From Verrucomicrobiia bacterium (GTDB lineage: Bacteria > Verrucomicrobiota > Verrucomicrobiia > Limisphaerales > UBA1319), in the NCBI GenBank assembly GCA_963664225.1, contig OY760937.1, positions 1,984,001 to 2,048,000 of the forward strand: DNA of 64,000 bases, in the 5' to 3' direction. Below, in pieces: positions 5,359-57,217 of this stretch. The translations under genes were made by a program, and so were the position numbers. Position 1 is the first letter of the stretch. Each line of letters starts with the position of its first letter. A model generated the notes under the pieces. It made no database searches. It was not told the DNA's origin and saw only the letters and a list, made by a program, of their open reading frames with translations.

Positions 5359-5451
5359 AGTGGGGCGGGTGCATGACAAAATTCAGGAGTGTGGAAAGCA
5401 GCCATGGCAGTACGCTGATTTTAAATAGGTTTTGCGGCAATGGCAGAACCA

Positions 5452-6468
5452 GCATGCGGGGATCGCGGTGCATTTGAAAACGTTGGGTTCGAGAACACGC
5501 TAAGCCGGTCAGGAGACCGGCGCTCCGAAGACACCGGCATGCGGGGATCGCGGTGCATTTGAAAACGTTGGATTCAAGAACACGCTAAGCCGGTCAGGAG
5601 ACCGGCGCTCCGAAGACACCGGCGTGCGGGAATCGCGGTGCATTTGAAAACGTTGGGTTCGAGAACACGCTAAGCCGGTCAGGAGACCGGCGCTCCGAAG
5701 ACACCGGCGTGCGGGAATCGCGGGGCATTTGAAAACGTTGGGTTCGAGAACACGCTAAGCCGGTCAGGAGACCGGCGCTCCGAAGACACCGGCATGCGGG
5801 GATCACGGTGTGTTTGAAAACGTTGGATTCGAGAACACGCTAAGCCGGTCAGGAGACCGGCGCTCCGAAGACACCGGCGTGCGGGAATCGCGGGGCATTT
5901 GAAAACGTTGGGTTCGAGAACACGCTAAGCCGGTCAGGAGACCGGCGCTCCGAAGACACGGGCGTGCGGGAATCGCGGGGCATTTGAAAACGTTGGGTTC
6001 GAGAACACGCTAAGCCGGTCAGGAGACCGGCGCTCCGAGGACACGGGCGTGCGGGAATCGCGGGGCATTTGAAAACGTTGGGTTCGAGAACACGCTAAGC
6101 CGGTCAGGAGACCGGCGCTCCGAAGACACCGGCGTGCGGGAATCGCGGTGCATTTGAAAACGTTGGGTTCGAGAACACGCTAAGCCGGTCAGGAGACCGG
6201 CGCTCCGAAGACACCGGCATGCGAGGATCACGGTGTGTTTGAAAACGTTGGGTTCGAGAACACGCTAAGCCGGTCAGGAGACCGGCGCTCCGAAGACATC
6301 GGCGTGCGGGAATCGCGGTGCATTTGAAAACGTTGGGTTCGAGAACACCCTAAGCCGGTCAGGAGACCGGCGCTCCGAAGACACCGGCCTGCGGGGATCA
6401 CGGTGTGTTTGAAAACGTTGGGTTCGAGAACACGCTAAGCCGGTCATGAGACCGGCGCTCCGAAGACA
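5452..6468. repeat. Tandem array 1: 12 copies of an 85-bp unit containing a REP-like hairpin
   Basis: GCCGGTC-AGGA-GACCGGC hairpin every 85 bp from 5504 to 6439; on the minus strand it is preceded by GGAG-C. Confidence 0.95.
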
Positions 6469-6577
6469 CAAGTCACCCTATATACTCCACTGGCATTTCT
6501 GGCCTTTTTCTGCGTGCAGTAGAATTTTGTCCTGCACCAAAGTGGTGGCCGTCTGTATGGATAGATAGGAATTGGGG

Positions 6578-7393
6578 TTATTTGGATTTGGGATTGGGAG
6601 TGTCGTCGGAAGGCACACGTCCCGCAACGGCCTTGATGCCGCCGAGGATGTGCCGGAGAAAATCCGGTTCGCTGAAGCTGGATTCGGTATGGCCCATGGC
6701 GGTGTACCACATCCGGCCTTTGCCGATGCGGCGGCACCAGGCGATCGGGTGATCGGCGCCCATCCGGCCCCCCTCGTAGGTGGATTCATCGACTGTGGCG
6801 AGCACCCGGGCGCGACCGCGCGGCGTGCCGGTAAAGTTATACCATTCCTCCGTGCGCTTCCAGTGAGTGGGAAGGCCCATCGTCGAGGGATGTTTGGAAT
6901 CCTCGATGAGTATCGTCCCGGGCACGACGGCCGAGTGATTGGTGAACGCGCAGCAAAACACCTCGCCGTACCAATCCCATTTGTCTTCGCAGGCAAGGGG
7001 TCCAAAGACCGCCCCGTGAATCGCGGCGAACCCGCCTCCATTGACAACGTATTGCTTGAACTCCGCCTCCTGGACTTGATTGAGCACGTCGCCGGTCGCG
7101 CTCAGGAAGACAACGGCCCGGTAGCGCGCGAGGTTGGTCGAAGTGAACGCACTGGAATCCTCGGTGGCGTCCACGGCAAAGTCATTCGTGGTTCCAAGGG
7201 ATCGGATGGCCTCGATGCCGTTGGTGATGGAGGCGTGCCGGTAACCGAGCGTTTTGGAGAAGACCAACACACGATATTCTTCCGCGCGCAAACTGGAGGG
7301 CATGAGCAGCAATAGCGCGGTCAGGACGCAGAGAATCGCGAGCGTGGGAAGAACGGCTGCTCCTTGTGAATTCAATCTCGGTGATGTTTGCAT
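6578..7393 (-). CDS. ThuA-like (trehalose utilisation, GATase-like) domain protein
   Basis: VLVFSKTLGYRHASI, GGGFAAIH, EEWYNF, DHPIAW, GRMWYTAMGH; start uncertain (7393 or 7420). Confidence 0.9.
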   Translation of the reverse strand: MQTSPRLNSQGAAVLPTLAILCVLTALLLLMPSSLRAEEYRVLVFSKTLGYRHASITNGIEAIRSLGTTNDFAVDATEDSSAFTSTNLARYRAVVFLSATGDVLNQVQEAEFKQYVVNGGGFAAIHGAVFGPLACEDKWDWYGEVFCCAFTNHSAVVPGTILIEDSKHPSTMGLPTHWKRTEEWYNFTGTPRGRARVLATVDESTYEGGRMGADHPIAWCRRIGKGRMWYTAMGHTESSFSEPDFLRHILGGIKAVAGRVPSDDTPNPKSK

Positions 7394-7517
7394 GGTTGTG
7401 ACAAGGGTTAGGCCATACACAAGGATGGTGTCAATTCAGAACAAGAATAAAGCGGGTAAGTGGGTTTTGGAAACGATAGCAAGCGTGGCGCTCAAGGAAG
7501 CAGGACGTTAACCCTGC

Positions 7518-10060: not shown

Positions 10061-13000
10061 TTATTGTTGTTCCACTTTGAGGCGATAAAACCGTTGAGCC
10101 GCCCGTTCGATGTCGGTCAGATCGCGCACGGTGATTTCTTCAGTCGTTCCCAGATCCGCACGTCGGGTTTCGACCAGATAGTTGGTTCCCGAATTCCACA
10201 GGGCCAGGTCACCCGAAACCTCCGGCACACAGAGCACATCGGTCGCTGATTTGGAATGCGTGTAGGTCAGAGTGAAATAATTGAAGGTGTCCAACGCGAT
10301 GCGTCCGGCGGTCAATGTATTGCGTGGCGCAATCACCTTGGGCGACAGGCCCAGCGCGTATTTGAGCAGGTTGGAGATTCCATCGCCAGCCGGTGTGGCC
10401 AAAGGTCCGCTCACGGGATCGTTCATGAGTTCGTCCGCCGTGAATTGCATAAAGCGCCAGCGGTCGAACGCCGTATCCCGGGACATGAGGATTTGATACC
10501 AGATCGTGGCGGTGTTGGTTGAAATTTCGATGACCGCAAGACCGTTTGTGCCGCCCACGGTCAACTCGCCCTTGCGCTGTCCGCGTTCGTCGAGCGCAAA
10601 AACCCGCACCCGCTCAGGCGCAACCGGCAGCGTCAGTGTCAGCGGCACCACTTCCGCCAGCACCGGCGCGTGGCCCCAATTCATCCCCACCGAGGTTCGC
10701 GTGGCGTCCTTCCACTGCATGCCCGTGTTGCTGACCTCCCCGCAAACCACCATCAGGGCCGTGCCGCCATGGGAGAAATCCTCGCCGCTGGTCAGGGTCA
10801 GGCCGACCGTGCACCACCCGAGTTGCGAGGTCCCCGGCTGGATTTTCACATCACCCAAGTCGATGGATTGGCCCGCTGGAAATCCGCTGAAAATGCGCGT
10901 CTTCGGCGTGTTGATCCGCAAGGTCCCCTTCCCTGCCGTGGTCGTGTTCCAGGTCAACTCCCCGGTGTCCGACGCCACCACGCTGCCTGCCGGAGCCGCT
11001 GGCGGCGTGGCCAGGCCGGTGGCGTTTGTGCCCACGGACATGCTCAACCGGCTCGCGAACGCCAGTTTCCCGGGCATCCCCAATTGCTCGCTGCTCATCA
11101 CGCTCCACGAGGTGCCGTGGCTTTTAATCGCATCCAGTTCGGTATCCGGAGTCACAGGCAGTGTGTATTCCTTTTGCGCGGCCTGAACATCGCCCCTGCG
11201 AAAAATCGCCGCAGCCAGCATCAGGTTGGCCATCTTGGTGGGATGCTGCCACAGATCGAAGTAACTGTGAAAATAACCCGCCCCGGCGGTGTCATTTCCC
11301 GCGCCATAATCGAACATCCACAACCCATCCCAATCCTGCAACGCCCCATAGGCCGCGAGCATCACGGGCCCCTCGGCCCCGTAATCGTTGGGCGAGGGAT
11401 GTTGATATTCGGTGACCGTGAACGGCTTTCCACGCACCCGCTGACGCGCGAGTCCGGCGATTGTGTTGTCATCGCCCAGCGTGTTCACCATGGAGGTATT
11501 GGGAATGTACCAATTCACCCCATCCCACGGGATGCCGGGAAATGACGGGTGCTGCCAATACGCATGGCCGTCCACCACGTCCATCTCCGACTGAACACTC
11601 GGGGGACTGTTTGCAATAATGGTCCCAAAGATCAGCCCATGGTAACCGCACGCACTGCGCAGATGCGTCACCATCGCCTGATAATAGCGATGCTCCAGAT
11701 CGCGCAGGAAACAAATCCAGTCCTTGCGGGCCTCCTGGGTAAACTGGCCGGCCGCGTTATTGTAAGTCACGTTGGGCACCGTGCCCTGCGCCAGACTTGC
11801 GCCAGCGGGCAACACGCCGATGCGTCCGCCCGGCTGCAGCGTCACGTTCGCGATCCACACCGCCACTTTCTGTGTGGCAAAACCACCGAAATTCGCCCGC
11901 GCGTTTGTGTCGGAGGATGTGGTCTGAAAAGTGGCCGTGAACTGTTGCCAATTGGTGGTGAGCTTCACCGTTTGCCCAAAGCCCAGCCCCTCCCAATTCG
12001 CATGGGCCTGCATCATGGAGGTGTCCATGGTGGTGTCCTGGCTGGCCTTGGCCCAATAGCTGAACACATACGGCTGCGCATTGGTCAGGCGCAGACCCGG
12101 CTGGTTGAGCTGGATGTACCATCCGGCGGTTCCCACGGTGACCATCTGAATCTTTGCCGCTGGCGCTCCATTAAAATCCTTGGTCACTGTGAACTGCGCA
12201 TCCGCCACATCATGTTTTTCAGTCACCCAGTTATTGTAACCGTTGGTGAACGACCCATTGCGCAGCATCGACGCGCCCAGCGGCTGGTCGATGATTTTCC
12301 AGGTCTGCCGCAAAGTGGCGTCATTGGTGTAACGCGCGCGCAGCCAGTCGTTCCAACGCGTTTGCAGCGGAGTCTGGAACACTGCCGGGAATTTATCCAG
12401 CGAACCTTCGAACCACTTCTGAATCATCCCGTTCTCGTTCATGATCTCCACGAACGCCACCGCCGGATCCGCCGCCAGCGTCAAACCCGTATGCGGATTT
12501 ATGGGAGTCAGCACGCGCGTGGCGTATTCCTGATGCAGGGCCAGCGCGGGATCGTAAAAGAACCCCAGCACGTGCCGGTCCTTCCAGTCCATGGTCTCCA
12601 CTTCCGCAGGCAGGCCGTCCGCCGTATGAAACACCCGGCCCACGAGCAGATTCACATCGGAGTAAATCCCGTGCGCCTTCAGACGCGATACCATGTATTG
12701 CACCCGGTCAAGCTGCTGGGGGTTGATGGGACGGCTGGAACCGCTCTTGTAATCGATCAGACCGCCGTTCGCCGCCCAATCAGAGTCCATGTGATGAAGG
12801 CGGACGCAATTGACGCCAAACTTGGCCAGGCGCGCCGCCATTCCATCCGCGCGATTGGTGGGCGCAAACGGACTGTCTGCCGCAAAGTTGACGCCCAGAA
12901 AACGAATGCGCTGACCGCGCGCCTCGAAATGCCCCTCGGCGTTTACCGTAACCACATCCCCGGTTCCGCCAGGTCCAATCGGTGTGTTCCATTTCGAAAA

Positions 13001-13135
13001 ATCCGCCGGACCGCCCGTCGCGTCGTCCCAGGGCAACACAAAAGGAGTCTGGGCGGCTTCGACGGTGCAAATCCAAGCCATCAACGCGCAAAACACTCCA
13101 AAACCAGGCAATGGCGTGCGTTTTTCAAATTTCAT
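10061..13135 (-). CDS. Secreted glycoside hydrolase (GH-A clan-like TIM barrel) with inserted CBM4/9-like domain and C-terminal appended domain
   Basis: Signal peptide; RFLGVN, GVNCVRLHHMD, EIMNEN acid/base motif, PFTVTEY nucleophile motif; NGSF..W CBM-like insert. Confidence 0.75.
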   Translation of the reverse strand: MKFEKRTPLPGFGVFCALMAWICTVEAAQTPFVLPWDDATGGPADFSKWNTPIGPGGTGDVVTVNAEGHFEARGQRIRFLGVNFAADSPFAPTNRADGMAARLAKFGVNCVRLHHMDSDWAANGGLIDYKSGSSRPINPQQLDRVQYMVSRLKAHGIYSDVNLLVGRVFHTADGLPAEVETMDWKDRHVLGFFYDPALALHQEYATRVLTPINPHTGLTLAADPAVAFVEIMNENGMIQKWFEGSLDKFPAVFQTPLQTRWNDWLRARYTNDATLRQTWKIIDQPLGASMLRNGSFTNGYNNWVTEKHDVADAQFTVTKDFNGAPAAKIQMVTVGTAGWYIQLNQPGLRLTNAQPYVFSYWAKASQDTTMDTSMMQAHANWEGLGFGQTVKLTTNWQQFTATFQTTSSDTNARANFGGFATQKVAVWIANVTLQPGGRIGVLPAGASLAQGTVPNVTYNNAAGQFTQEARKDWICFLRDLEHRYYQAMVTHLRSACGYHGLIFGTIIANSPPSVQSEMDVVDGHAYWQHPSFPGIPWDGVNWYIPNTSMVNTLGDDNTIAGLARQRVRGKPFTVTEYQHPSPNDYGAEGPVMLAAYGALQDWDGLWMFDYGAGNDTAGAGYFHSYFDLWQHPTKMANLMLAAAIFRRGDVQAAQKEYTLPVTPDTELDAIKSHGTSWSVMSSEQLGMPGKLAFASRLSMSVGTNATGLATPPAAPAGSVVASDTGELTWNTTTAGKGTLRINTPKTRIFSGFPAGQSIDLGDVKIQPGTSQLGWCTVGLTLTSGEDFSHGGTALMVVCGEVSNTGMQWKDATRTSVGMNWGHAPVLAEVVPLTLTLPVAPERVRVFALDERGQRKGELTVGGTNGLAVIEISTNTATIWYQILMSRDTAFDRWRFMQFTADELMNDPVSGPLATPAGDGISNLLKYALGLSPKVIAPRNTLTAGRIALDTFNYFTLTYTHSKSATDVLCVPEVSGDLALWNSGTNYLVETRRADLGTTEEITVRDLTDIERAAQRFYRLKVEQQ

Positions 13136-13307
13136 GTCCCCCAGCCTATCAATCCCTGGCTCCGGATACAATCGAACGAATCCAGCAAGAAAGCTCCCGG
13201 GAGCGAGACAAAATTCAGGAGTGCGGGGAGGTTTAACATGGATGGATAGGATGGACAGGATTGGATTTGCGGCAACGGCAGAACCATCGGGCGGGGTTGA
13301 AGACCGG

Positions 13308-13729
13308 CGGGCGGGGATTAAGGCACATTTGAAAACGTTGGATATAGGAACACCGTAAGCCGGTCAGGAGACCGGCGCACCGGGGACACCGCCGGGCGGG
13401 GATTACGGCACATTTGAAAACGTTGGATATAAGAACACCGTAAGCCGGTCAGGAGACCGGCGCACCGGGGACACCGCCGGGCGGGGATTACGGCACATTT
13501 GAAAACGTTGGATACAAGAACACCGTAAGCCGGTCAGGAGACCGGCGCACCGGGGACACCGCCGGGCGGGGATTACGGCACATTTGAAAACGTTGGATAC
13601 AAGAACACCGTAAGCCGGTCAGGAGACCGGCGCACCGGGGACGGCGATGGGCGGGGATCGCGGCACATTTGAAAACGTTGGATATAAGAACACCGTAAGC
13701 CGGTCAGGAGACCGGCGCACCGGGGACGG
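13308..13729. repeat. Tandem array 2: 5 copies of a diverged 85-bp unit, same hairpin family as array 1
   Basis: Identical GCCGGTCAGGAGACCGGC hairpin at 13359 + n*85 (n=0-4); shared CATTTGAAAACGTTGG block. Confidence 0.95.
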
Positions 13730-13836
13730 CGGCGGGCGATCGCGGAGGACCATCGAACGCTTCCATGCGACCCAAATTTGGAGATGGCCCAAAAAAAACA
13801 TGCTTTTCTCTGTGTTTTTTTGCCGCGTGACCCTTC

Positions 13837-13866
13837 TTGCGCAAGTCAGCCATCAACGGTTAAAAT
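13837..13866 (+). promoter_or_regulatory. sigma70-like promoter, leaderless architecture, for dnaE
   Basis: TTGCGC-N18-TAAAAT then 6 nt to ATG; no Shine-Dalgarno. Confidence 0.55.
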
Positions 13867-13872
13867 GTCCCC

Positions 13873-16800
13873 ATGTCGAACGCGGATTTTGTTCACCTGC
13901 ACTTGCACACCGAGTATTCACTGCTCGATGGGGCCTGTCGCCTCGACCGCTTGATGGAGCGGGCGAAGGCGCTGAACTTTCCCGCGCTGGCCATGACCGA
14001 TCACGGCGTCCTCTTTGGCGCGATTGATTTTTACACCGCGGCCAAAAAGAGCGGCATCAAGCCCATCATCGGTTGCGAGATGTATGTGGCGCCCGGCAGC
14101 CGGTTCGACAAAAAATCGAGCCACGGCGGCAAGGACGTTTATCAGCACCTCATTCTCCTGGTCAAAGACGAGGTCGGCTATAAAAACCTGATCCAGCTCG
14201 TCACCGCAGCCCATCTCGAGGGGTATTATTACAAACCACGCATCGACAAGGAGCTGCTCGCCCAAAAGAAGGACGGCCTCATCGTCCTGTCCGCCTGTCT
14301 CGCCGGGGAAATCCCCGACCTCATCATGCGGGGCGAATTGGACAAGGCCCGGGAATCCATCGACTGGTATAAACAGACGTTCGGTCCCGAGAATTATTAT
14401 CTGGAGCTGCAAAACCATCAGCTTCCCGAGCAGGCCACCGTCAACCGCCAGTTGATCGCATGGTCCAAGGAATTCGGGCTGAAGCTCGTGGCGACCAACG
14501 ACGTGCATTACCTCGAGAAAAAGGATTCGCACGCGCACGACTGCCTCATCTGCATCGGCACGCAGACCACGCTCAACGACACCAAGCGGATGCACTACGC
14601 GCCCGAGCAGTTTTATCTGCGCTCGGCGGACGAGATGAAGGCCCTGTTTATCGAAACGCCCGAGGCCATCTCGAACACGCTGGAAATCGCCGAGAAGTGC
14701 AACCTGAAGATCGAGTTTGGCAAGCTCCACTACCCCGTCTTCCAGCCGCCGATCGAACGGTCGCGCGAAAATTATCTCAAGGATCTGGTCGCCGAAGGCT
14801 TGAAAACACGCTACGGAATGAGCGTTCGCGTGGTGGGGGATCAATTTGTCGTAGACGCCATCCAGGACGCGCGCCGTCTGCCCACGTATGTTCCAGACCC
14901 CGCCGACAAGGACGCCAGCAACGCCGCATCGCTGGACAACCCCGCCGTGGCCACCGCCGTTCAACGGATCATGGACCGCGTGGAAATGGAGCTCAAGGTC
15001 ATCGATAAAAGCGGCTTCGTTAGTTACTTCCTGATCGTGGGCGATTTCGTCCGCTACGGCCGCAGCAAGGGCATTTCCTGCGTGGCGCGCGGTTCCGCCG
15101 CAGGTTCCATCGTCACCTACCTGCTGGCCATTTCGAACGTCGATCCCATCCGTTACGCGCTGCTGTTCGAGCGCTTCCTGAATCCCGAGCGCGTCAACCC
15201 GCCCGATATCGACATTGACTTCGCCGACGACCGCCGCGCCGACGTCATCGAATACGTCCGCGAGAAATACGGCCGTGATTCCGTGGCGCAGATTGTCACC
15301 TTCGGCACCATGGGCGCCAAGTCCGTGGTGCGGGATGTCGGTCGCGTCATGAGCCTTTCCTACAGCGACTGCGATCGCCTGGCCAAGATGATCCCCAACG
15401 AATTGAAGATGGATCTGGCCAAGGCGCTCAAGCAATCCCCGGATTTCAAGAACGCCTACGACACCGAGGAGGTCACGCGCGAATTGGTGGATATCGCCTT
15501 CGTGCTCGAGGACCTCACGCGCAACGCCTCGGTCCACGCCGCCGGTGTGGTCATCGGAGATCAACCGCTCGTCAATGTGCTGCCCCTCAAGCAGGACGAG
15601 GACGGCACCATTGTCACGCAATATCCCATGGGGCCGGTCGGCGATCTCGGTTTGCTGAAGATGGACTTTCTGGGTCTCAAGACGCTCACCGTCATTCGCA
15701 ACGCCGTGGAGATGATCAAGGCCACGCGCGGCATCGACCTGCCCATCGACCAGTTGCCGCTGGACGACCCCAAGGCCTTCGCGCTGCTCAACAAGGGCGA
15801 TACCGTCGGCGTGTTCCAGTTGGAATCCGGTGGCATGCGCGATTTGTGCCGAAAATTCAAGATGAGTTCCGTGGAGCACATCACCGCGTTGATCGCGCTC
15901 TACCGGCCCGGCCCCATGGACCTCATCCCTGATTTCATCAAGCGCCGCCATGGCGAGGTCCCCGTGGAATATGAGCATCCGCTGCTCGAACCGATCTGCC
16001 GCGAAACCTACGGCATCATGATTTACCAGGAGCAGGTCATGCAGGCCACGCAGGTCCTGGCGGGATTCACACTGGGCGGCGCCGACCTGTTGCGCCGGGT
16101 GATGAGCAAGAAAAAGGTCGAGGAAATGCAGAAGCACCGCGCGTTGTTCGTCGCGGGTTCCGCCAAAACCAACAACATCCCCGCCGACCGGGCGAACATG
16201 ATTTTCGATCATCTCGAAAAGTTCGCCGGATACGGATTCAACAAATCCCACGCGGCGGCCTACGCCATCGTCTCCTACCAGACCGCGTATCTTAAGGCCA
16301 ATTACCCGGTGGAGTTCCTTTGCGCCATGCTCACCAACGACATGGGCGACACCGCCAAGGTGGCGATCCTGATCGAGGAGGCGCGCGACCTCCACGTCGA
16401 GGTGCTCCCGCCCGATGTCAATGAGAGCCAGGTGGTCTTTGCCCCGGCGCGGGAAGGCACGGTGGTTCGCTTTGGCCTGGCCGCCATCAAGGGCGTTGGC
16501 GAAATCGCCGTGCGCTCCATTCTTGAGGCCCGACAGAAAGGCGGAAAATTCACCTCCCTGAACGACCTCTGCGAACGCGTGGATACCCGCACGGTCAATC
16601 GCAAGGCCCTGGAAGGTCTCATCAAATCCGGCGCGTGCGATACTTACGGACAAACCCGCGCCACGCTTTTCTCGCAGATCGATCACGCCCTGGCCCGCGC
16701 CTCGAGCCTCGCCCAGGACCGCCAGAGCGGTCAGGGCAGCCTGTTTGGTTTGATCGATGACGGCACCACATCAGCTCCCGAATCCGCGATTCAATTGCCC

Positions 16801-17872: not shown

Positions 17873-17951
17873 CACATGATTTTCCATGGGCAAGTGAGGG
17901 AGAATATTCGGAAGAGTGAAAGGGATCTTCGCTTGCGCGTAGCGCTGAAAA

Positions 17952-21058: not shown

Positions 21059-21091
21059 AGTATGCAGGTCTGGATGGATCTGTGCGGAGAT

Positions 21092-45106: not shown

Positions 45107-45172
45107 TGTTATTACTCATAACAATATAAATTATTATGTCAATAGTTATACGCAATTTATTTTAAGAATCTT

Positions 45173-45852: not shown

Positions 45853-46041
45853 TTAACCACTTCAGCCCGGCCATTGCCTATAGCCACTTCGCCTGACGGA
45901 TACGGTACATCGATGTTGACGCAGGCGGTTTGACCTCGCCATTGGCATTAAACGGTTTTGTAAAGTTACAGACGTTGCCGGTGACAGGTTGGATCAACTC
46001 GGGCGGCGCTTTGGCGCCGCCCGAGCCATTGCCCGTATCGA

Positions 46042-47571: not shown

Positions 47572-47988
47572 TCAGTGGTCATGACCGCCATAAATCCACA
47601 TGGGCTCGGTCTTGCCCGCGCGCTCAAATCCGCACTTGCGATAGAAATCCAGAGCGCGTCCGTCGGCCAGAAGTATGTGCTGGTGAAATCCCTCGTATCG
47701 CGCCAAGAGCCGCCGCATAAGCTCCGCGCCAATGCCGCGCCTCTGATACTCCGGCAGCACCAGCAAGTGCGGGTAGTAAACCACCAGACAACCATCCGAA
47801 ATGGCATTGCCAAGTCCGACAAGCTTCGCCCCATCCCAAGCCGTGACTAAGGAGTGAGACGCCAGCAGCGCCTTATGCAGCAACTCCGGCTTCTCTGCGG
47901 AGGACCACTCGTTCGCACGATAAAGAGCCAGAATGCCCTCCAGTGCCAACTCCCGCCCGTCGCTGTAACGAATGCCGTTGGATTTCAT
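47572..47988 (-). CDS. GNAT family N-acetyltransferase
   Basis: LLVLPEYQRRGIG motif A; FYRKCGF. Confidence 0.92.
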   Translation of the reverse strand: MKSNGIRYSDGRELALEGILALYRANEWSSAEKPELLHKALLASHSLVTAWDGAKLVGLGNAISDGCLVVYYPHLLVLPEYQRRGIGAELMRRLLARYEGFHQHILLADGRALDFYRKCGFERAGKTEPMWIYGGHDH

Positions 47989-48137
47989 GAGTGTGATTCG
48001 GTATTTGTGTCGTGCATTGCGATGAAATCTGCCTTCTGAATGGCATCGACATCAGCATCCAAGTCCTCCTCGCGACGTGGCTGCTGAAAGGCACCAAACG
48101 CGTCCTCAATAATCGCCTGGATTTGCGCCCTGTTCAT
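47985..48137 (-). CDS. Short ORF (50 aa), possibly a gene remnant, coupled to the GNAT gene
   Basis: MNRAQIQAIIEDAFGAF...; its stop overlaps the GNAT start (ATGA). Confidence 0.45.
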   Translation of the reverse strand: MNRAQIQAIIEDAFGAFQQPRREEDLDADVDAIQKADFIAMHDTNTESHS

Positions 48138-48176
48138 TCTGATAACTTTTTGCTTTCCTCAAACACGTCCTATTTA

Positions 48177-50151
48177 GTAGAGTAGGCGAAATGGACGGAT
48201 TGAATGGCCGTGGCCAATGACCGTCGCATTTCGCCCCTCATCGAACCGGACAGGCGGTTTTCCCGCATCCGGCTCTCCGGGGATCATACGTTGCATCGCT
48301 TCGACGTCATCGTTTCCATGCCGCATATTCCGGCATTTGGTATAAACCATAACGCTCATAGAGATCCTCCTTGGGGTATGTGGACCATTGCGCCCGACTA
48401 CATCCGTGTTTGCGCCACAACCATCGTTGTAACTTGCTGCTGACGTATTCGTTCATCTGGCCCATCACCTTGGTGCTGTTCCCGTAGTGAAAGTAACCCT
48501 TCCAACCTTTGAGTTTCTTGTTGAGCTCGGGAATCACCTCTCCGATATCACGCCATAGCGTGCTTCGGTTGAGTTTCTCCCGAATCCCGTCTCGAAACTT
48601 CTTCTGGCTCTTGGGATGGGGTTCCACATGCGGATATTTCCATTTCCCCTTCCCCTGTCGCATTGTTAGCGCGAATCCCAAGAATTTGATGCCATCCTGG
48701 CGGAGGTCCACCAAGCGGGTCTTCTTCTCGTTGAGCACTAACTCGCGTTGCTTCAGCCATCGTTCCAGTCGTTCCATCAGTTCCCGTCCCTGCCCCGGCT
48801 GTCCGAGTATCACGAAATCATCCGCGTATCTCACCATCACGGGTTTGAGTTCGCAGCGTTCGTTGACTTCCCAATCCAACTGGTTGAGGTATGCATTGGC
48901 TAAAATCGGCGATACAACCCCGCCTTGCGGAGTCCCCCGTCGATTCTGACCTTGCCCCCCCTTTGTCCCGCCTTTCCCTGTGTCGCTTTGCGGTTCATTC
49001 ACGGGCGCGCGCAGCCATCCTGCGATCAGCTTGAGAATTGTTCCATCGCTGACCCGCTTGGCCACTATGCGCAACAAACGCCTGTGGGGAATGCTGTCAA
49101 AATACCCGCTTAAGTCCGCGTCTATAACTTCGACGCGTCCTGTCAGCGTAGCCTTCTTGATCGCCTCCATTGCTTGGTGGGCATTGCGTTTGGGATGATA
49201 GGCGTAACTGTTCGGATGACTATCGGCTTCCAGAATCGGCAGCAATACAATCACCACCGCTGTCTGCACCACCCGGTCTTTCACTGTCGGGATGCCCAGG
49301 GGTCGCAGCTTCCCGTCTCCTTTTGGTATATACACACGCTTCACCGGGCTTGGCCGATACTTCTTCGTGCGTAACTCCTCCAGCAGTTGGTTCCGCCATT
49401 GGTCCCAGGCTTCGTCGCTGGCAAGATAGACGTCGCATGTCTGCCCGTCGATCCCAGCCGCGCCATTGTTGTGCGCCACGGAGGCCATTGCCGTTTCCAG
49501 CACGTCCTTCCGCAGCAGTTCTCCGTAGAGGCTGTAAAACCGATACTTCGGCTCAGCCTTGGCTTTGCAATATAGCGCTCGCTGCAGCTTTTGAACTTTT
49601 ATCGGGGTTGTTATCCGTTGAAAAAGTGTTTCCACTCCCTCAAGGCCATCTCCCTGTCCCTCGCTGTTTTGATTCGCTTCGATCCAAGTGCCTTCCCTTG
49701 GCTCCGCCGGGGTTTTGGTCGCCCCAGCTTCTTCGCTACTATGGAAGACTCCGACTTCTCTGGCTGCCCGTGCGGCCTCGGAGGGTGTTCCTCCTTGCAC
49801 CGGCGGTTGAGGCTTTATCGCCCCGCCTCCAGAGATCTCCCAGCTTACCTTGGTTTCCCTTCCTGTCGTGTCGCCCTCGCTGACTCCGCCGGAATCAACA
49901 GCGCCCATTTGACGATTTGATGACGCCGCGTTTCTGCCTTCGCCGTTCGGGTAGCGGCTCGGCTTACCGGTTATTTCGGTTTCGGAGCTCATTTGATGAG
50001 GTTTACTTTCGTTACGACCCGACAGTTCTTTCAGCGTCCCGCTTGTGGTTCGGCCTCACGGCCTCGTCCCGGACGCTGCATTTCGGTCGTGAACCGTCTA
50101 ATTCGACCGGCGGGACTTTCACCCACGAGGCTACCAATTTCACTGGCGCAC
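48177..50151 (-). mobile_element. Group II intron (1975 nt) with EBS1/EBS2, IIB-like
   Basis: 5' GTGCG at 50151; domain V GAGCCGGATGCGGGAAAACCGCCTGTCCGGTTC; domain VI ending CCTACTCTAC at 48177. Confidence 0.95.
48307..49635 (-). CDS. ltrA: Group II intron reverse transcriptase/maturase, no HNH endonuclease domain
   Basis: RPLGIPTVKDRVVQ, DADLSGYFDSI, GTPQGG, RYADD, FLGF, domain X; probable start GTG 49635. Confidence 0.93.
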   Translation of the reverse strand: METLFQRITTPIKVQKLQRALYCKAKAEPKYRFYSLYGELLRKDVLETAMASVAHNNGAAGIDGQTCDVYLASDEAWDQWRNQLLEELRTKKYRPSPVKRVYIPKGDGKLRPLGIPTVKDRVVQTAVVIVLLPILEADSHPNSYAYHPKRNAHQAMEAIKKATLTGRVEVIDADLSGYFDSIPHRRLLRIVAKRVSDGTILKLIAGWLRAPVNEPQSDTGKGGTKGGQGQNRRGTPQGGVVSPILANAYLNQLDWEVNERCELKPVMVRYADDFVILGQPGQGRELMERLERWLKQRELVLNEKKTRLVDLRQDGIKFLGFALTMRQGKGKWKYPHVEPHPKSQKKFRDGIREKLNRSTLWRDIGEVIPELNKKLKGWKGYFHYGNSTKVMGQMNEYVSSKLQRWLWRKHGCSRAQWSTYPKEDLYERYGLYQMPEYAAWKR

Positions 50152-50152
50152 A

Positions 50153-51684
50153 CCCGAACTCCGAGATAGAAAAAGAGGTCGCAATGCGCAACCTTCTGAG
50201 GCAATAGGGTTTGATGCTAAACAAGCCCGCTTCAGACTCGCACAAAACGACCCCAGTCGAAATTAGCGCTCTTTTCGGCCAAGCCAAGCTCTATCTGGAT
50301 GAGACTCCCAAGGCCATAACCCCCTTCGGCGGTCTGGCTTCATTCATAACCTTTTTGGGTCAGATCGGCTATGCGCAGGCGGTGCAGCGGTGCTTGCCGT
50401 TTGCCGCGCCCACTTCACCTAATGCCATTCCTCTAGCCCATACGCTGACCAGTTTTATCGTATCTGTGGTGGCGGGAGCACGCCGCTTTGCCCACTGTCA
50501 GTGGCTGCGTGCCGATCATGTTCTGCACGCCATGCTGGGGATGGAACGTTTCCCGGGCGATGACACCATCCGCAACTTCTTCCTGCACTTTGGCCAGGGC
50601 CACATCGAAGCGTTCTGGCGACCGCTCTGGCGATGGCTGCTCAATCTGCTGGCCTGCCCCAAGGCAGGCTTCTCGTTGGATCTGGATTCGACCGTGTTCT
50701 GCCGGGAGGGTTCGCAGGAGGGGGCTGCCAAGGGGTACAATCCACGCCGCAAGGGGCGCAAGAGCCATCATCCGCTCCTGGCGGTGCTGGCCGAAGCGCC
50801 GTTTATCCTGCATGGATGGTTGCGCAGCGGCAACACCGGAGCCGCGCGCGGGGTGGTGCCGTTTTTGCAGGAGGCATTGGCCCTGTTGCCCGAGGGAACG
50901 TGGATTCGGTGCGTGCGTGCCGACAGCGGGTTCTTCGATGAGGCGTTAGTGACGTTTTTGGAAATGCGCAAATTAACCTACATTGTGGTGGCGCGCATGA
51001 CCTCCACGATCAAATACCATTGCGTGGGAATCCAGAACTGGAAAGCCATCGATGAAAATCATGCCGTGGGGGAGTTTAGAGCCCAACTCTTTGGCTGGTC
51101 CACTGCCCGGCGATTCGTGGTGCTGCGGGAGCGGATCAGGGAAGACAAGGAGGCTCTGGGTCGCAAGCTCATTGATGTGCCCGGTTACACCTTTCGAGTG
51201 TGCGTCACCAACCGAAGTGAAGGCGCGCTGGAACTGTGGAGGGACTACAACGGAAGGGCCACCATCGAGCAGCGGATCGAGGAGCTGAAGAATGATCTGG
51301 CTGCCAACGGTTTTTGCCTGAAATCGTTTTTCGCCACCGAGTCGGCGTTTCTGGCGGTGCTCTTCACATTCAACCTGCTGAGTCTTTACCAGCATCAGAC
51401 CACTCCAACCCAGCCATACCGCCAGCCAGGAACATTGCGGACGACGGTTTTTCTGGCGGGAGCCCTCTTGGGAACGATGGGGCGTGATGTGGTGGTGAGG
51501 CTCTCGGCGGCCTGGGGTGGACTGGCTAAACACAAGCCGTTGATAGAAACCACGTTGAACTGGTTGAAAAGCGCGTCGCCGAAGTTGGTGCCACCGGAAG
51601 CCCGGCAAGCTTTCGGAGGGGGCGGAATATGACCGGAGGGGTTAGCGGTTCCCTAAAAAAACCGACCTAACTTCGGAGTTCGGG
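50153..51684 (+). mobile_element. IS1380-family insertion sequence (1532 bp)
   Basis: 12-bp perfect IRs CCCGAACTCCGA / TCGGAGTTCGGG; 5-bp TSD TTTAA restored on removing the intron. Confidence 0.92.
50211..51632 (+). CDS. IS1380-family DDE transposase
   Basis: TPFGGL, LDLDST, GYNP, HPLLA, LRSGN, VRADSGF, YNGRATIEQRIEELK. Confidence 0.93.
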   Translation: MMLNKPASDSHKTTPVEISALFGQAKLYLDETPKAITPFGGLASFITFLGQIGYAQAVQRCLPFAAPTSPNAIPLAHTLTSFIVSVVAGARRFAHCQWLRADHVLHAMLGMERFPGDDTIRNFFLHFGQGHIEAFWRPLWRWLLNLLACPKAGFSLDLDSTVFCREGSQEGAAKGYNPRRKGRKSHHPLLAVLAEAPFILHGWLRSGNTGAARGVVPFLQEALALLPEGTWIRCVRADSGFFDEALVTFLEMRKLTYIVVARMTSTIKYHCVGIQNWKAIDENHAVGEFRAQLFGWSTARRFVVLRERIREDKEALGRKLIDVPGYTFRVCVTNRSEGALELWRDYNGRATIEQRIEELKNDLAANGFCLKSFFATESAFLAVLFTFNLLSLYQHQTTPTQPYRQPGTLRTTVFLAGALLGTMGRDVVVRLSAAWGGLAKHKPLIETTLNWLKSASPKLVPPEARQAFGGGGI

Positions 51685-51797
51685 TTTAAAACATACAAAT
51701 CCAACAGATAACAGGCTAGTTTTGTCTGTGTTTGCTCTCGATCAAGTTTTGCATTTCAGATTGAAGGTTTTTCCAGGTTCCTGCATCTAAAGGAGAT

Positions 51798-53132
51798 ATG
51801 AACAACTCGTTGGGATTGTCGCCCTGGCGCCGGGCCGCCGCCGGAATTTTGTCGTGTTCCCTATTTTTGGGACTGTCCTCATATCTTCAAGCGGAGAATT
51901 GGCCGCAATGGCGGGGTCCGCTCCTCAATGGGGCCACCACGGAGACCAATCTTCCCTCGCAGATCGATAAGACGAACGCCTTGTGGACCGTGCCGATGCC
52001 GGGAAAAAGCGGCGCCACGCCGATCATCTGGCAGGACCGTGTGTTCATCTCCAGCCCGGATTCGGAAAAAAATATCCACTTGATTTGCATCAACCGCGTG
52101 GACGGCAAAGTGCTTTGGGACAATCGCCTGGCTACGGGCGATCTGCAGGTGGGCAAAAACAACGCCGCATCGCCGTCCCCCGTGACCGATGGCAAAACGG
52201 TCTGGTTGATTTGCGCCACGGGAGACATTGCCGCTTATGATTTCACCGGACGCGAACTCTGGAAGCGGAACCTGGCCAGGGAATACGGCGCATTTTCCTA
52301 TATGTGGCTCTACGGCAGCTCGCCGCTGCTGCTCGATGGAAGACTCTATATCCCTGTATTACAACGTGATACGCCAGCCTATGCGCATGCCAAGGATGAC
52401 AAGCCGGAGCGTGAGTCCTACCTGCTCTGCCTGGATGCGGCCACAGGCAAGAATCTCTGGCGCCACATCCGCCCGACCGATGCCATCGAGGAATCACAAG
52501 AGTCTTATGCCACGCCAGTTCCATTCGAATTCGAGGGGCGCAAGGAAATCCTGCTGGTGGGCGGGGATTATGTGACCGGGCACGATCCGGAAACCGGCGC
52601 GGAACTCTGGCGTTGTGGTGGATTGAATCCCAAGAAGTCGCACTGGGGCCGCACTATTACGTCGGTATCAACTTCGCCTGGAATGATTTATGCGTGCAGC
52701 GCCAAACGCGAAGTCATGCTGGCCGTGAAGGCTGGCGGCAAGGGACTGGTTACCGGCACGCATGTGGCGTGGACTTATACGGAGAACGTGCCGGACGTGT
52801 GTACCCCGCTCTATTATCAAGGCCAACTCTTTGTGCTGGATGGGGATAAGCAGATGATGACCTGCATGGATCCACGGTCCGGCGAGATCAAATGGCAGGG
52901 CAAGCTCGGCGTGCGCGAGATCTTTAGCGCGTCGCCGATGGGCGCGGATGGCAAAATCTATTGCTTCAGCGAGGATGGTTCCGTGGTGGTGCTGGCCGCC
53001 GGGAACGAGTTCAAAATACTGAGCACCAGTAACTTGGGCGAAGGCCCCAGCATGTCCACGATTGCCGCCGCACAAGGCCAGGTCTTTGTCCGCACCGCAA
53101 AGAACCTCTACTGCTTCGGTCTTAAGAAGTAA
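51798..53132 (+). CDS. PQQ-binding-like beta-propeller repeat protein (secreted)
   Basis: ENWPQWRGP, repeated G-LW/SP motifs, C-terminal VRT-LYC. Confidence 0.9.
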   Translation: MNNSLGLSPWRRAAAGILSCSLFLGLSSYLQAENWPQWRGPLLNGATTETNLPSQIDKTNALWTVPMPGKSGATPIIWQDRVFISSPDSEKNIHLICINRVDGKVLWDNRLATGDLQVGKNNAASPSPVTDGKTVWLICATGDIAAYDFTGRELWKRNLAREYGAFSYMWLYGSSPLLLDGRLYIPVLQRDTPAYAHAKDDKPERESYLLCLDAATGKNLWRHIRPTDAIEESQESYATPVPFEFEGRKEILLVGGDYVTGHDPETGAELWRCGGLNPKKSHWGRTITSVSTSPGMIYACSAKREVMLAVKAGGKGLVTGTHVAWTYTENVPDVCTPLYYQGQLFVLDGDKQMMTCMDPRSGEIKWQGKLGVREIFSASPMGADGKIYCFSEDGSVVVLAAGNEFKILSTSNLGEGPSMSTIAAAQGQVFVRTAKNLYCFGLKK

Positions 53133-53426: not shown

Positions 53427-55571
53427 ATGCCTAAATTGGCGGACGAACCCTTTTTGAATCGGGAGTTAAGCTGGCTGGCCTTTAACCGCCGGGTGCTGGC
53501 GGAGGCGCAGAATCCGGAGAATCCACTTTTGGAGCGCCTGAAATTCTTCACGATTTTCAGTTCGAACCTCGATGAATATTTCGAGGTGCGCGTGGCGGGG
53601 CTCAAGCAGCAGATCGAAAGCGGCGTGGTCGAACGCAGCGACGAAGGGATGACCCCGGCGGAAACCTTCCAGGCCATTGTCAAAATGGTGCGTGAACTGG
53701 TCGATTTCCAATACAAATGCTGGAGGAAGGAGATCGCCCCCGCACTCGCCAAAAACGGCATCCGGCTGCTGGAGTTCAACCAACTCAGCGCCACGGACTC
53801 GCAGTGGGTGGATGTCTATTACAAGGCCGAGGTGCGGCCTGTGCTCACGCCGCTGGCGATCGATCCATCGCATCCATTCCCGCAGTTGTTCAATAAATCG
53901 CTCAACCTGATTGTCGAGCTGGAAACGGACCAGCCGGGCGACAAAAAGCTCCGACTGGCGATTGTTCAAGTGCCACGGATTCTGCCCCGGCTCATTCGAC
54001 TCCCGCGGCCGGACAAGGCGCAGGATTACCTGCCGCTGGGACGCCTGATCAGCCATTACCTGGGCGATCTTTTTGCGGGAATGACCATTCGCGGCTACTG
54101 GCTTTTCCGCGTGACGCGAAACAGCGAACTCTACATCGACGGCGAAGAGACCGCCAACCTGCTCAAGGCGGTGGAGAACGAACTGAAGAATCGTCGGCGC
54201 GGTGCGGCGGTGCGTCTCGAAGTCGAGGGGAATTGCCCGGAACCGATCCTCAACCAACTGCTCAAGAATCTCAATCTCACTCCCGACGATTTGTATCGCA
54301 TCGATGGTCCTTTGAGTCCGGGACGGTTGATGCTCATTTATAGCGAGAACCACGCGCCGGAGTTGCGCGATCCCTCCTTTTTCGCGCCCACGCCACGGAC
54401 GCTGAGCCACCCCGCGGATATTTTTGCCTCCATCAAAAAACAGGATATTCTGCTCCACCACCCCTACGATAATTTCGAGGGGGTGGCGGCCTTTCTGGAA
54501 CGCGCCGCCGAGGATCCCAAGGTGCTGGCCATCAAGCAGACGCTCTACCGCACCGGAGGGGATCCGCGCATCGTCGGCGCGCTGATGCGGGCGGTCAACA
54601 ACGGCAAACAAGTCACCGCGGTGGTGGAACTCAAGGCGCGGTTCGATGAGGCCAACAATATCGAATGGGCGCGACGACTTGAGGAGGCCGGGGTTCATGT
54701 GGTCTATGGTTTGGTGCGCTACAAAATCCACGGGAAGATTTGTTTGGTGGTGCGCCGCGAGGATTTGGGCATTCGCCGTTATGTCCATGTGAGCACAGGC
54801 AATTACAACCCCATCACCTCGCGCATTTACACGGACTTGGGGTTGCTGACGTGCCATCCGGATTTCGGCGAGGACGCCACCAACCTGTTCAATCTTTTGA
54901 CGGGCATCTGCCAGTTTCAAGGGATGCGCCAGTTCATGGTCGCGCCATTCCAACTGCACGAGCGGATCCTGGCCCTGATCGAACGGGAAATTCCCAACGC
55001 CGCCCAGGGACTGCCGGCGCGCATCATTGCCAAGATGAATTCGCTGGTGGACCCCCAGATCATCAAGGCTCTTTACCGGGCCTCGGCCGCAGGGGTGAAA
55101 ATCGATCTGATCGTGCGGGGAATCTGCTGCCTGCGCCCCGGCGTGAAGGGTCTGAGCGAAAACATCACCGTGCGTGGTGTGGTGGATCGCTTTCTGGAAC
55201 ACAGCCGCATTTTCTATTTCGAAAACGCCTGCCAGCCCGAGGTCTATCTGGGCAGCGCGGATTGGATGCCCCGGAATTTCTTCGGACGCGTGGAAATCGT
55301 GTTCCCCATTTTGGACGGCATGCTGTGCGAAAGAATCCGGGAGGAGATTCTGGAAACAAGCCTCAAAGACAACGTCAAGACCTGGTATTTGAACGAGAGC
55401 GGAGCCTACTCCCGGGTGGTTCGCAAGAAGGGCGAGAAGCCGTTCCGCAGCCAGTCTGAATTCATCGCCATGGCCATTGCCTCCCAGGTGCCGCCTGAGA
55501 AGGCCAAAGATAAATTCCCCCAAGTCCAAACTAACAAGACGCCAGACCTGTCGGCCACGAAGTTGCAGTAG
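53427..55571 (+). CDS. ppk1: Polyphosphate kinase 1
   Basis: NRELSWLAFNRRVL, LLHHPY, IKQTLYR, ELKARFDE, TGNYN, RFLEHSR, SADWM. Confidence 0.97.
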   Translation: MPKLADEPFLNRELSWLAFNRRVLAEAQNPENPLLERLKFFTIFSSNLDEYFEVRVAGLKQQIESGVVERSDEGMTPAETFQAIVKMVRELVDFQYKCWRKEIAPALAKNGIRLLEFNQLSATDSQWVDVYYKAEVRPVLTPLAIDPSHPFPQLFNKSLNLIVELETDQPGDKKLRLAIVQVPRILPRLIRLPRPDKAQDYLPLGRLISHYLGDLFAGMTIRGYWLFRVTRNSELYIDGEETANLLKAVENELKNRRRGAAVRLEVEGNCPEPILNQLLKNLNLTPDDLYRIDGPLSPGRLMLIYSENHAPELRDPSFFAPTPRTLSHPADIFASIKKQDILLHHPYDNFEGVAAFLERAAEDPKVLAIKQTLYRTGGDPRIVGALMRAVNNGKQVTAVVELKARFDEANNIEWARRLEEAGVHVVYGLVRYKIHGKICLVVRREDLGIRRYVHVSTGNYNPITSRIYTDLGLLTCHPDFGEDATNLFNLLTGICQFQGMRQFMVAPFQLHERILALIEREIPNAAQGLPARIIAKMNSLVDPQIIKALYRASAAGVKIDLIVRGICCLRPGVKGLSENITVRGVVDRFLEHSRIFYFENACQPEVYLGSADWMPRNFFGRVEIVFPILDGMLCERIREEILETSLKDNVKTWYLNESGAYSRVVRKKGEKPFRSQSEFIAMAIASQVPPEKAKDKFPQVQTNKTPDLSATKLQ

Positions 55572-55620
55572 TAAGCCACGGTGAATGCGGAGGAGCGCAG
55601 ATTTTAAAACGCCAATGGGC

Positions 55621-57217
55621 GCGGGTGTATGACAGAATTCTTCGGCAAGCGAAAAAGGGTGGTTTGAGTGGTGCCGCCGCGTGGGGTTGACGGGCGAAGA
55701 AGTGGGGCGCGAATAAAGCATCACGCGGAGGCGCGGAGAACGCGGAGAATTAGAGTGGATGGGATCCGAAAAGCCACCTCACCCCGGCCCAATGGCTTCC
55801 CAAGCCCGCCACGAGTTGGTGGCCCAATAAGGGACGTGCGCTTCGCGCATCGTGGTCCCCTGAGCGGAGAGGGAGGAGTGTTGGGCGGCTCTGGTGAGAT
55901 TGGATGGTTGGGAAGGTGCCGCCGCGTGGGGTCGGTTCAGGAGGAAAATATCAGTTGGATGGTGAAATAGGGCACGCCCTCATCCCGCCTTCTCCCCCAG
56001 GAGAAGGAGAAGTTTCGCAAGTTGCGGGTTGAATTGAGTGGTCTGGAAGGTGGCGGCGCGTGGGGTTGGTTGAGGACAGAATGGATAATGGACAATTGAT
56101 AATGGACAATCAAAGAAATTGAAGTTTCGAAAGTCGCGGGGTGAAGGGTGGTTTGAGTGGTGCCGCCGCGTGGGGTTGGTTCGTGAAGAAATAATTAGTT
56201 GGAGGGTGAAATAGGGCACGCCCTCATCCCGGCCTTCTCCCCCAGGAGAAGGAGGAGTTTTGGGAGCCTTGGGTTTATTGCACGGTTTGGAGGTGCCGCC
56301 GCGTGGGGTTGGTTCATAAAAGAAGGTCCAACGAAGCGGCGCATTCGTCGCCATTACGCGCGTCCAATTGGTTCTCGCTCGCGAGCGGGGGAGGCGTATT
56401 TGCTCTTCCAAAGTCATCGAGTTCATGCCAGAAACGTCTCATGTTCCACGTTGCCAGCGCGCGTTCTTTGCGCAAGAGGCCCAGTTGGGCCGAAAAGCTC
56501 GTTTGGAAGTGGCTGCGGGATCGGCGATTCAGTGCTTTCAAATTCCGTCGGCAGCATCCCGTGGGTACTTACTGCCTTGATTTTTACTGCGTGGAGGCGC
56601 GGCTTTCCATTGAACTGGATGGCAGGCAGCACGGACATCCAGACCAGAAGGCTCACGATGCAGAACGCGCGAAATTCCTCGCTTCGATGGGCATAAAAGA
56701 ATTGCGCTTCTGGAACTCCCGTTTGAAGCGGGAGCAACAAGCGATTCGGGACATGATTTTCCTGGAGTTGCAGGAACGTTCTCCCCATCCATTGCCTCGT
56801 TACACGAGGCCGATGACACCATGCGATTCTCGGCCATTGGGAGATGGAATTTGCCTTCCGTGATTGAGTGCCGTCTATTGAAAGTGAGAAAAATGGATTG
56901 ACGCACGCCCTCATCCCTCCTTCTCCCCCAGGAGAAGGAGGAGTTTTGCGAGGTGTCGGTGTATTTGGATGGTTTGGGAGCTGCCACCGCGTGGGGTTGG
57001 CTCGTGAAGGAAACTTTAGTTGGAGTGTGAAATAGGGCACGCCCTCATCCCGCCTTCTCCCCCAGGAGAAGGGGGAGTTTTGGGAGCCTTGGGTTTATTG
57101 CACGGTTTGGAGGATGCCGCCGCGTCGGATTACATGCTCCACACCGGAGCCTGGATTCCATGCTGGGTTCGCACGGTTTAGGTTTCTACCCGCTTCCTGT
57201 TTTTTGTCCTGCGCCCG
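55621..57217. repeat. Mosaic repeat cluster surrounding a DUF559 gene
   Basis: CCTTCTCC-CCCA-GGAGAAGG hairpin at 55988, 56233, 56919 and 57053; GGTGCCGCCGCGTGGGGTTGG-like motif about 6 times. Confidence 0.9.
56441..56863 (+). CDS. DUF559 / Vsr-like endonuclease domain protein
   Basis: ARSLRK...AEKLVWKWLR, FKFRRQHPVG-Y-LDFYC, IELDG-QH, D-ER, LRFWN. Confidence 0.9.
   Translation: MFHVASARSLRKRPSWAEKLVWKWLRDRRFSAFKFRRQHPVGTYCLDFYCVEARLSIELDGRQHGHPDQKAHDAERAKFLASMGIKELRFWNSRLKREQQAIRDMIFLELQERSPHPLPRYTRPMTPCDSRPLGDGICLP

Follow-up and report, generated by a model that had tools for sequence, protein, structure and literature searches.

What does it mean that one short sequence recurs in the spacers of a bacterial chromosome, with a sharp outer edge and beside repeats that are otherwise unrelated? 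The question is raised by a 64,000-nucleotide stretch from a Verrucomicrobiia bacterium (Limisphaerales; GenBank assembly GCA_963664225.1, contig OY760937.1, positions 1,984,001 to 2,048,000), which we call the window and for which a first-pass annotation had proposed that the sequence, hereafter the end motif, forms the conserved ends of a family of intergenic cassettes with exchangeable palindromic cargo. Our answer, to which we give a probability of about 50%, is that the motif is the common terminal module of a lineage-specific, non-coding family of mosaic intergenic repeats, resembling bacterial interspersed mosaic elements (BIMEs), repetitive extragenic palindromes (REPs) and miniature inverted-repeat transposable elements (MITEs), in a subdivision 3 lineage of the Pedosphaera/Limisphaerales type.

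The motif is strongly enriched. Allowing three mismatches or fewer, GGGYGCAKGACAAAAWTC has nine matches in the window against 0.49 +/- 0.64 expected, a count reached in none of 100 dinucleotide shuffles, and eight of the nine are intergenic, in a window that is about 17% non-coding and 83% coding by our own gene list. Aligned copies give the consensus CGGGTGCAGGACAAAATTC-n2-G-n-AAGCGGAAAAG with a sharp 5' edge; the conserved part is the 18-mer GGGTGCAGGACAAAATTC, and GCAAGCGAAAAAGG often follows it. The matches are as follows:

5365-5384, 13197-13216, 26946-26965, 31297-31316 and 55621-55640, plus strand: motif copies, sequence checked
6522-6541, 17855-17874 and 57199-57218, minus strand: motif copies, sequence checked
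51844-51861, minus strand: motif-like match with three mismatches (score 18.6 with a position weight matrix, PWM), not counted as a member

The last of these sits in the signal-peptide codons of a PQQ-repeat protein gene starting at 51798 and is probably a chance match. Two extra copies came from a repeat finder and alignment, a better one at 17552-17591 and a degenerate one at 21009-21040, and a self-trained PWM scan of the window gave no additional convincing intergenic copy. The working set is thus one of ten copies, designated here by position and strand: 5367+, 6539-, 13199+, 17552+, 17872-, 21009+, 26948+, 31299+, 55623+ and 57216-. All the positions listed by the first-pass annotation do contain sequence of the kind it described, with two adjustments: its degenerate copy at 17512-17528 is weak (PWM 10.9; nhmmer E 6.3), the true left end there being 17552-17591, and the copy that it called partial, at 13207, is more than that, being a paralogue of the 5365 end, because a second 85-bp array (13303-13738) comes after it.

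The evidence that carries our reading is where similarity between copies stops. Over the 36 pairs of nine copies, mean identity is 29% in the outer 30 nt vs. 75% in the first inner 18 nt, and in every alignment of paralogues similarity begins or ends at the outer edge of the motif; between the 5365 and 13197 copies, for example, it starts precisely at CGGG. Breakpoints at the motif had been suggested as a check, to be made between strains; run on paralogues of the window instead, it favours the end of a copied unit. That outer edge faces the nearer gene boundary in all ten copies, at 7-78 nt, which agrees with the idea of a shared end, as does the inward orientation of the three pairs described below. 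We designated the four larger clusters cassettes A to D in order of position, and three comparisons between their ends illustrate the contrast:

cassette A left end against cassette B left end: 9/30 identical outside, 24/30 inside
cassette C right end against cassette D right end: 12/30 identical outside, 25/30 inside
cassette C left end against cassette D left end: 9/30 identical outside, 22/30 inside

Inward from the motif, similarity continues for 30-190 nt within each of three subtypes:

5367 and 13199, plus strand: subtype I-a, CAGGAGTGYGG and a common leader, then an 85-bp tandem array (12.0 and 5.1 copies)
6539, 17552, 55623, 31299 and 21009: subtype I-b, TTC-n-GCAAGCGAAAAAGG after the 18-mer
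17872 and 57216, minus strand: subtype II, CAGGAAGC-GGTA-AA-CCTAAACCGT..., the end of a 175-190-nt module

Three of the I-b copies go on, in the alignment, with a hairpin position and GAGTAT. The subtype II module has 83% mean column identity between its two copies (the 17700-17874 region vs. 57024-57255), with about 175 nt common to 17715-17881 and 57059-57225, and the similarity stops at the GCGCCC edge; a 53-amino-acid (aa) open reading frame (ORF) that spans this module gave nothing in a protein search, itself included. The 18-mer contains the pentamer CAGGA, which is also present at the I-a and II ends and within the hairpin module of cassette D.

Three unrelated interiors are joined to this one end motif, namely 85-bp arrays, the 175-nt module and hairpin clusters with a gene of the DUF559 nuclease family, so that the earlier suggestion of one end with interchangeable interiors fits what we found. 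The cassettes and single copies are laid out as follows:

5365-5384, plus strand: left end of cassette A, I-a, no mismatches, outer edge 7 nt past the stop of the CBM9 gene
5448-6469, plus strand: cargo of cassette A, 12.0 tandem copies of an 85-bp unit with 94% matches
6502-6541, minus strand: right end of cassette A, I-b, the 18-mer plus GCAGAAAAAGG with one mismatch, outer edge 37 nt from the stop of the ThuA gene
13197-13216, plus strand: left end of cassette B, I-a, 62 nt upstream of the probable start (ATG at 13135) of the divergent CBM4_9 gene
13303-13738, plus strand: cargo of cassette B, 5.1 copies of a variant 85-bp unit
17512-17530, plus strand: weak motif-like stretch before the left end of cassette C
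17552-17591, plus strand: left end of cassette C, I-b, 41 nt past the dnaE stop (nhmmer E 4.7e-4)
17700-17874, minus strand: right end of cassette C, subtype II module, 18-mer at 17855-17874, edge 78 nt from the stop of the cupin gene
21009-21058, plus strand: degenerate I-b copy with a hairpin (repeat-finder identity 66%)
26946-26965, plus strand: single copy, 38 nt past the stop of a 78-aa membrane ORF, with a small hairpin directly after it
31297-31347, plus strand: single I-b copy with a hairpin, between a kinase gene and ribBA
31371-31390, minus strand: possible degenerate partner of 31297 with the inverted core GCAGGAC, a weak, single 7-mer match
55621-55660, plus strand: left end of cassette D, I-b, 50 nt past the ppk stop
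55661-57058, plus strand: cargo of cassette D, direct repeats around the DUF559 gene (likely 56441-56863)
57059-57218, minus strand: right end of cassette D, subtype II module, 18-mer at 57199-57218, 62 nt upstream of the probable start (ATG at 57280) of the beta-helix protein gene

Wherever a spacer holds two strong copies they face inward (3/3, where random orientation would give (1/4)^3), and the three pairs enclose the 12 x 85-bp array, the module of about 175 nt and the DUF559 cluster, just as described before us. Cassette B has no clear right-end motif; its far side aligns weakly to the right end of A, and 13826-13851 is at best a decayed relic. Copy 31297(+) would form a 94-nt mini-pair with 31371-31390(-), with only the GCAGGAC core in common. 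The repeats of cassette D are the hairpin module CCTTCTCC-CCA-GGAGAAGG and the GC-rich module GGTGCCGCCGCGTGGGGTTGG. To call the cargo palindromic is only partly apt, as the cassette at 17545-17880 folds no better than shuffles (z +0.39). The 85-bp units do hold a hairpin, GCCGGTC-AGGA-GACCGGC, perfect in 16 of 17 units, with one loop reading ATGA; because its stem is invariant, covariation is impossible there. The repeated GGA loops of the arrays are reminiscent of CsrB/Rsm-type decoy RNAs.

We propose that units copied within this genome would start or finish with a terminal module, made of the 18-mer GGGTGCAGGACAAAATTC and often of GCAAGCGAAAAAGG and a hairpin after it, to which the different interiors (85-bp arrays, the 175-nt module, hairpin clusters around the DUF559 gene) would be joined. 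A spacer filled by one or more such units would then show the motif at both edges, pointing inward. Copying may have proceeded by transposition or by recombination, and we infer an enzyme responsible for it. Read outward, the module would run from a hairpin through a T-rich tract to the 18-mer, and at least some copies probably act as intrinsic terminators, insulating the adjacent gene; this would account for their being tolerated at gene ends.

The presence of three unrelated interiors next to the same 18-mer could also be read the other way round, the motif being an attachment or target site beside which repeat elements insert in one orientation, making it seem their end; the low-cargo copies 26948 and 31299 could then be near-empty sites. 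We find this improbable. Within subtypes, the divergence of the motif is similar to that of the interior beside it (A vs. B: 15/18 in the motif, 24/30 overall), and the motif is therefore not marked as older, and no integrase, invertase or site-specific recombinase was found in the window by Pfam. An observation on cassette D has some bearing here: its outer flanks, 55591-55620 (ATTTTAAAACGCCAAT) and 57219-57248 (ATTAGCGTTCACAAAT), are inverted-repeat-like, with 15/30 positions identical vs. a mean of 8.7/30 for the other flank pairs. Either this cassette has longer ends, or it was placed in an older hairpin behind ppk; the second option would fit insertion into an older palindrome, as an attachment site would have it, but the likeness is one case in 36 comparisons.

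The position of the copies relative to genes raises the main rival to the terminal module of a copied repeat. The genes flanking the copies, mapped with the help of Pfam, are these:

4543-5358, plus strand: CBM9 gene, left of cassette A
6578-7420, minus strand: ThuA gene, right of cassette A
10061-13171, likely ATG 13135, minus strand: CBM4_9 protein gene, left of cassette B
13873-17511, plus strand: dnaE, between cassettes B and C
17952-18344, minus strand: cupin gene (Cupin_2), right of cassette C
18754-20943, plus strand: FG-GAP protein gene, left of copy 21009
21167-24019, minus strand: BlaR1-like gene, right of copy 21009
26672-26908, plus strand: 78-aa membrane ORF, left of copy 26948
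27121-28215, minus strand: rluD-like gene, right of copy 26948
30025-31224, minus strand: ribBA (DHBP_synthase and GTP_cyclohydro2 domains), left of copy 31299
31431-33698, minus strand: Ser/Thr kinase gene, right of copy 31299
53427-55571, plus strand: ppk, left of cassette D
likely ATG 57280, plus strand: beta-helix protein gene, right of cassette D

An ORF at 29917-31281 on the plus strand, apparently ending just before 31297, was rejected as spurious, being antisense of ribBA, whose Pfam domains are on the minus strand. Nine of the ten copies are in convergent or co-directional spacers, 13199 alone being in a divergent one. The first-pass annotation had each pair begin just after a stop codon; this is partly true, since seven copies lie 7-78 nt past a co-oriented stop, and the other three, 13199, 31299 and 57216, precede a start codon by 62-73 nt (73 nt for 31299, before ribBA).

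Such a placement would suit a resident host signal at the boundaries of transcription units, either as part of a terminator family or as a site bound by a DNA- or RNA-binding protein, alongside which unrelated repeats accumulate; an inward-facing pair would then be two convergent genes with a copy each. A DNA-binding-protein site was the alternative named by the first-pass annotation, and it may still apply. Besides the seven copies at co-oriented stops, two of the three pairs do lie between convergent genes (CBM9/ThuA and dnaE/cupin), and at copies 21009 and 31299 terminator-like hairpins with a T-tract directly adjoin the module. Read on the other strand, the I-b module gives hairpin, T-rich tract, GAATTTTGTCCTGCACCC, and in two of the five I-b copies outward-reading terminator-like sites adjoin the A-rich block (21058-21041 and 31347-31333):

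21058-21041, minus strand: terminator-like site with a canonical hairpin and T-tract, downstream of the BlaR1-like gene
31347-31333, minus strand: terminator-like hairpin and T-rich tract, downstream of the kinase gene, before the 18-mer
31275-31248, minus strand: promoter-like site for ribBA, score 10/12, just beyond the motif edge

The module at 31299 is thus placed exactly between a terminator-like site for the kinase gene and a promoter-like site for ribBA. We nevertheless hold a resident signal to be possible but on the unlikely side. Three of the ten copies are not at a co-oriented 3' end, and seven vs. three is statistically compatible with an even split; the genes around the third pair do not converge; most other gene ends of the window have no motif; and the subtype similarity that extends 30-190 nt inward fits copied units, not sites selected independently. 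The remaining copies have weak hairpins or none. Because these other hairpins are weaker and scan totals are not above those of shuffles, terminator activity would concern part of the family.

The comparison with relatives bears on the same alternative. With a search for contigs based on DnaE, we gathered 80 dnaE loci with 10-kb flanks (1.44 Mb) among the matches listed (at least 599 stretches); such flanks would span seven of the motif sites. The loci are mostly from uncultured Verrucomicrobiota, including subdivision 3 and Limisphaerales, and the closest among those listed have a DnaE 63-79% identical. An nhmmer profile of the motif had a best match of E 7.1 in these 80 listed loci (1.44 Mb). 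A relaxed pattern was found 0 times in the 28 closest listed loci (440 kb) and once in all 1.44 Mb, as compared with six times in the 64-kb window; no cassette similarity was detected by blastn and no DUF559 gene was found in the listed relatives' dnaE loci. The motif is thus missing from all 80, which argues against a regulatory signal conserved across the order and for a lineage-specific family. In the 33 loci examined among the matches listed, none of 13 neighbouring proteins of the window was found beside dnaE. A plasmid collection queried by blastn in its 'distant' mode with cassette D and the start of cassette A gave no match either, and the motif string retrieved only unrelated primers from the literature.

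Two further roles were weighed, and we regard them as very improbable: a promoter driving non-coding RNAs, such as the 85-bp arrays, or the boundary of an invertible segment, with an invertase switching a surface-protein gene. Both arrays begin with an I-a end and a common leader, as would suit a promoter, and cassette D ends 62 nt upstream of the gene of a secreted beta-helix protein. Scans of the window, however, found no sigma-70-like promoter coinciding with the motif, and its two blocks fit no sigma-54 or extracytoplasmic function (ECF) sigma consensus known to us. Cassettes A and C lie between gene 3' ends, with nothing there to switch, and no recombinase gene was found nearby. No Rfam family matched the motif, the group II intron being the only match in the window at gathering level; at E <= 1, cassettes A and D gave either none or two whalefall-1 matches (E ~0.7), far below the family threshold.

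Several results speak against our own reading, that of a terminal module of a copied repeat family, and must be set beside it. The terminal inverted repeats are uneven, with identities over the first 18 nt of 16/18 in A, 12/18 in D and 11/18 in C. No target-site duplication abuts the edges of A, C or D in the 30-nt flanks (AGTGG is near both edges of A, offset and not adjacent), nor do these flanks hold any conserved sequence outside the edges. Four of the ten copies (13199, 21009, 26948 and 31299) have no convincing partner, and no transposase with motif ends was found in the window, the ends of the IS66 and IS1380-like elements being unrelated to it. The ten copies folded showed no consistent motif hairpin (z -1.98 to +0.75), and terminator scan totals show no enrichment over shuffles (22 vs. 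20.6; 9 vs. 6.1). Finally, the sample is small: ten copies in one 64-kb window. As for a parent element, the IS1380-like transposase, which adjoins a motif-like 7-mer at 51720, was considered and rejected, as its own inverted ends (ACCCGAACTCCGA, at ~50151 and 51693) differ.

How does such a family compare with those already known? Like MITEs of the Correia/NEMIS type, it has short non-coding units beside genes, with inverted ends that match well in cassette A (16/18); it differs in having no target-site duplication, no parent insertion sequence (IS) in the window, a poor end match in two of three pairs, and many one-ended copies. Correia/NEMIS elements can carry terminator or promoter activity. 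The architecture also recalls the BOX elements of S. pneumoniae (boxA-boxB(n)-boxC), whose left and right ends differ and enclose a tandem middle of variable number (12 and 5 copies here); this likeness is one of architecture, with no sequence relation known, the middle unit being 85 bp here and the same end being also found on quite different interiors. BIME clusters bear distinct flanking motifs. In the same way, as BIMEs are commonly defined, ends I-a, I-b and II combine with arrays, hairpin modules and GC-rich modules across cassettes A to D.

REPs, according to passages of PMC3733652, are mostly found between convergent and co-directional genes, often at 20 bp or less from gene 3' ends; they occur singly, as head-to-head dimers or in clusters that include some flanking DNA. 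Our family has the same placement, being intergenic, near 3' ends and in convergent or co-directional spacers; at about ten copies per 64 kb and restricted to a lineage, it resembles REPs and BIMEs as those passages present them, and its copies, too, stand alone, in head-to-head pairs or in larger clusters that include other short motifs. It differs in other respects: the 18-mer is not palindromic and has no consistent stem-loop, the consensus CGGGTGCAGGACAAAATTC has neither the GTAG nor the CGTC tag by which the quoted part of PMC3733652 defines REPs, and Pfam found no RAYT gene among the window ORFs. Judged from sequence, the family would work like REPs or MITEs while belonging to neither, as it is without the defining features of both. 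Elements of this kind have been described in other bacteria; the family is a new local example and does not in itself amount to a new kind of system. Another short palindrome, GGCTCGGCGGGAGCCTCGCCCTAC, is repeated at 21089-21120, 21132-21163 and 24557-24588, with CTAC as its last four letters (GTAG on the complementary strand); it looks like a GTAG-tagged REP as portrayed in the same passages and appears unrelated to the end motif.

One cassette only, D, carries a nuclease gene, as had been claimed: its DUF559 gene (likely 56441-56863; Pfam E 2.5e-32) encodes a Vsr-like PD-(D/E)XK nuclease that is ordinary for its very large family: of 1516 candidates, 1501 are related to it at E <= 1e-10, and the best hits other than itself are 62-79% identical. 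A C-terminal tail of the PHPxPLPxGEGE type is present in 7 of 11 DUF559 homologues that were fetched, a set chosen for extra length and hence biased toward read-through tails; the hairpin module CCTTCTCC-CCA-GGAGAAGG translates similarly, as HALIPPSPPGEGG. Genes for DUF559 proteins with a G/C-rich hairpin downstream are like the nuclease and hairpin module of cassette D, and the hairpin association is far wider than the end motif. The end motif is therefore no general property of DUF559 loci, and the tie between nuclease and motif comes down to co-location in a single cassette. It is decidedly doubtful, in our opinion, that the 18-mer is the recognition end of a trans-acting enzyme, possibly working with DUF559 nucleases in place of a RAYT or DDE transposase, which moves cassettes behind genes, and that the 85-bp array is a functional RNA sponging a CsrA-type GGA-binding regulator; were it true, the system would resemble REP/RAYT but use a different nuclease and spread arrays of regulatory RNA.

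Four of the 11 homologues (P0009, P0013, P0041 and P0057) share an N-terminal extension, ...SVHTILFFTP..LY.LAMPD..., which points to a conserved sequence just upstream of DUF559 starts in other Verrucomicrobiota; an extension of this type is absent upstream of the DUF559 gene of the window. We found no description of repeat-flanked DUF559 loci in the full-text literature. DUF559 proteins are reported as enriched among predicted inversion targets (PMC9881135), and in another source DUF559, Vsr and a homing endonuclease of a group I intron are placed together (PMC3424549).

If the terminal-module reading is right, the window samples a dense mosaic intergenic repeat family that could reach several hundred copies on the 5.78-Mb contig, a figure extrapolated from ten per 64 kb and not counted. 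Families like this one influence operon boundaries, disrupt short-read assemblies and create spurious ORFs; in the window, repeats led to wrong ORF readings at 29917-31281 and at 57160. With a defined end motif, annotators would have a handle with which to mask these regions and to seek the enzyme that spreads the repeats. For Verrucomicrobiota, the full-text literature says little about such repeat families, with the verrucomicrobium O. terrae being listed as rich in REPs in a passage of PMC3733652.

Other features of the window deserve a brief mention. An IS66-family element at 43346-45904 has 33-nt inverted repeats that are 97% complementary, with a TnpB-like ORF and a DDE transposase. A group II intron at 48177-50150 (minus strand), with Rfam matches to D1-D4 and to domain V-VI and a reverse transcriptase/maturase ORF at 48307-49992, directly abuts the left inverted repeat of the IS1380-like element at 50151-51693 (DDE_Tnp_1_4 transposase at 50211-51632). 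A GNAT acetyltransferase gene at 47572-48140 (minus strand) is preceded by a small ORF overlapping its start, a layout that would resemble a GNAT toxin with its antitoxin. Near the left end of the window, a 65-nt stretch occurs twice with 94% identity, at 2734-2798 and 4498-4562, upstream of and across the starts of two adjacent genes, those of an unknown 723-aa ORF and of the CBM9 protein; it appears to be a shared leader or regulatory region, and since it runs across the starts, the 723-aa ORF probably begins at an ATG at ~2779 and not at 2289.

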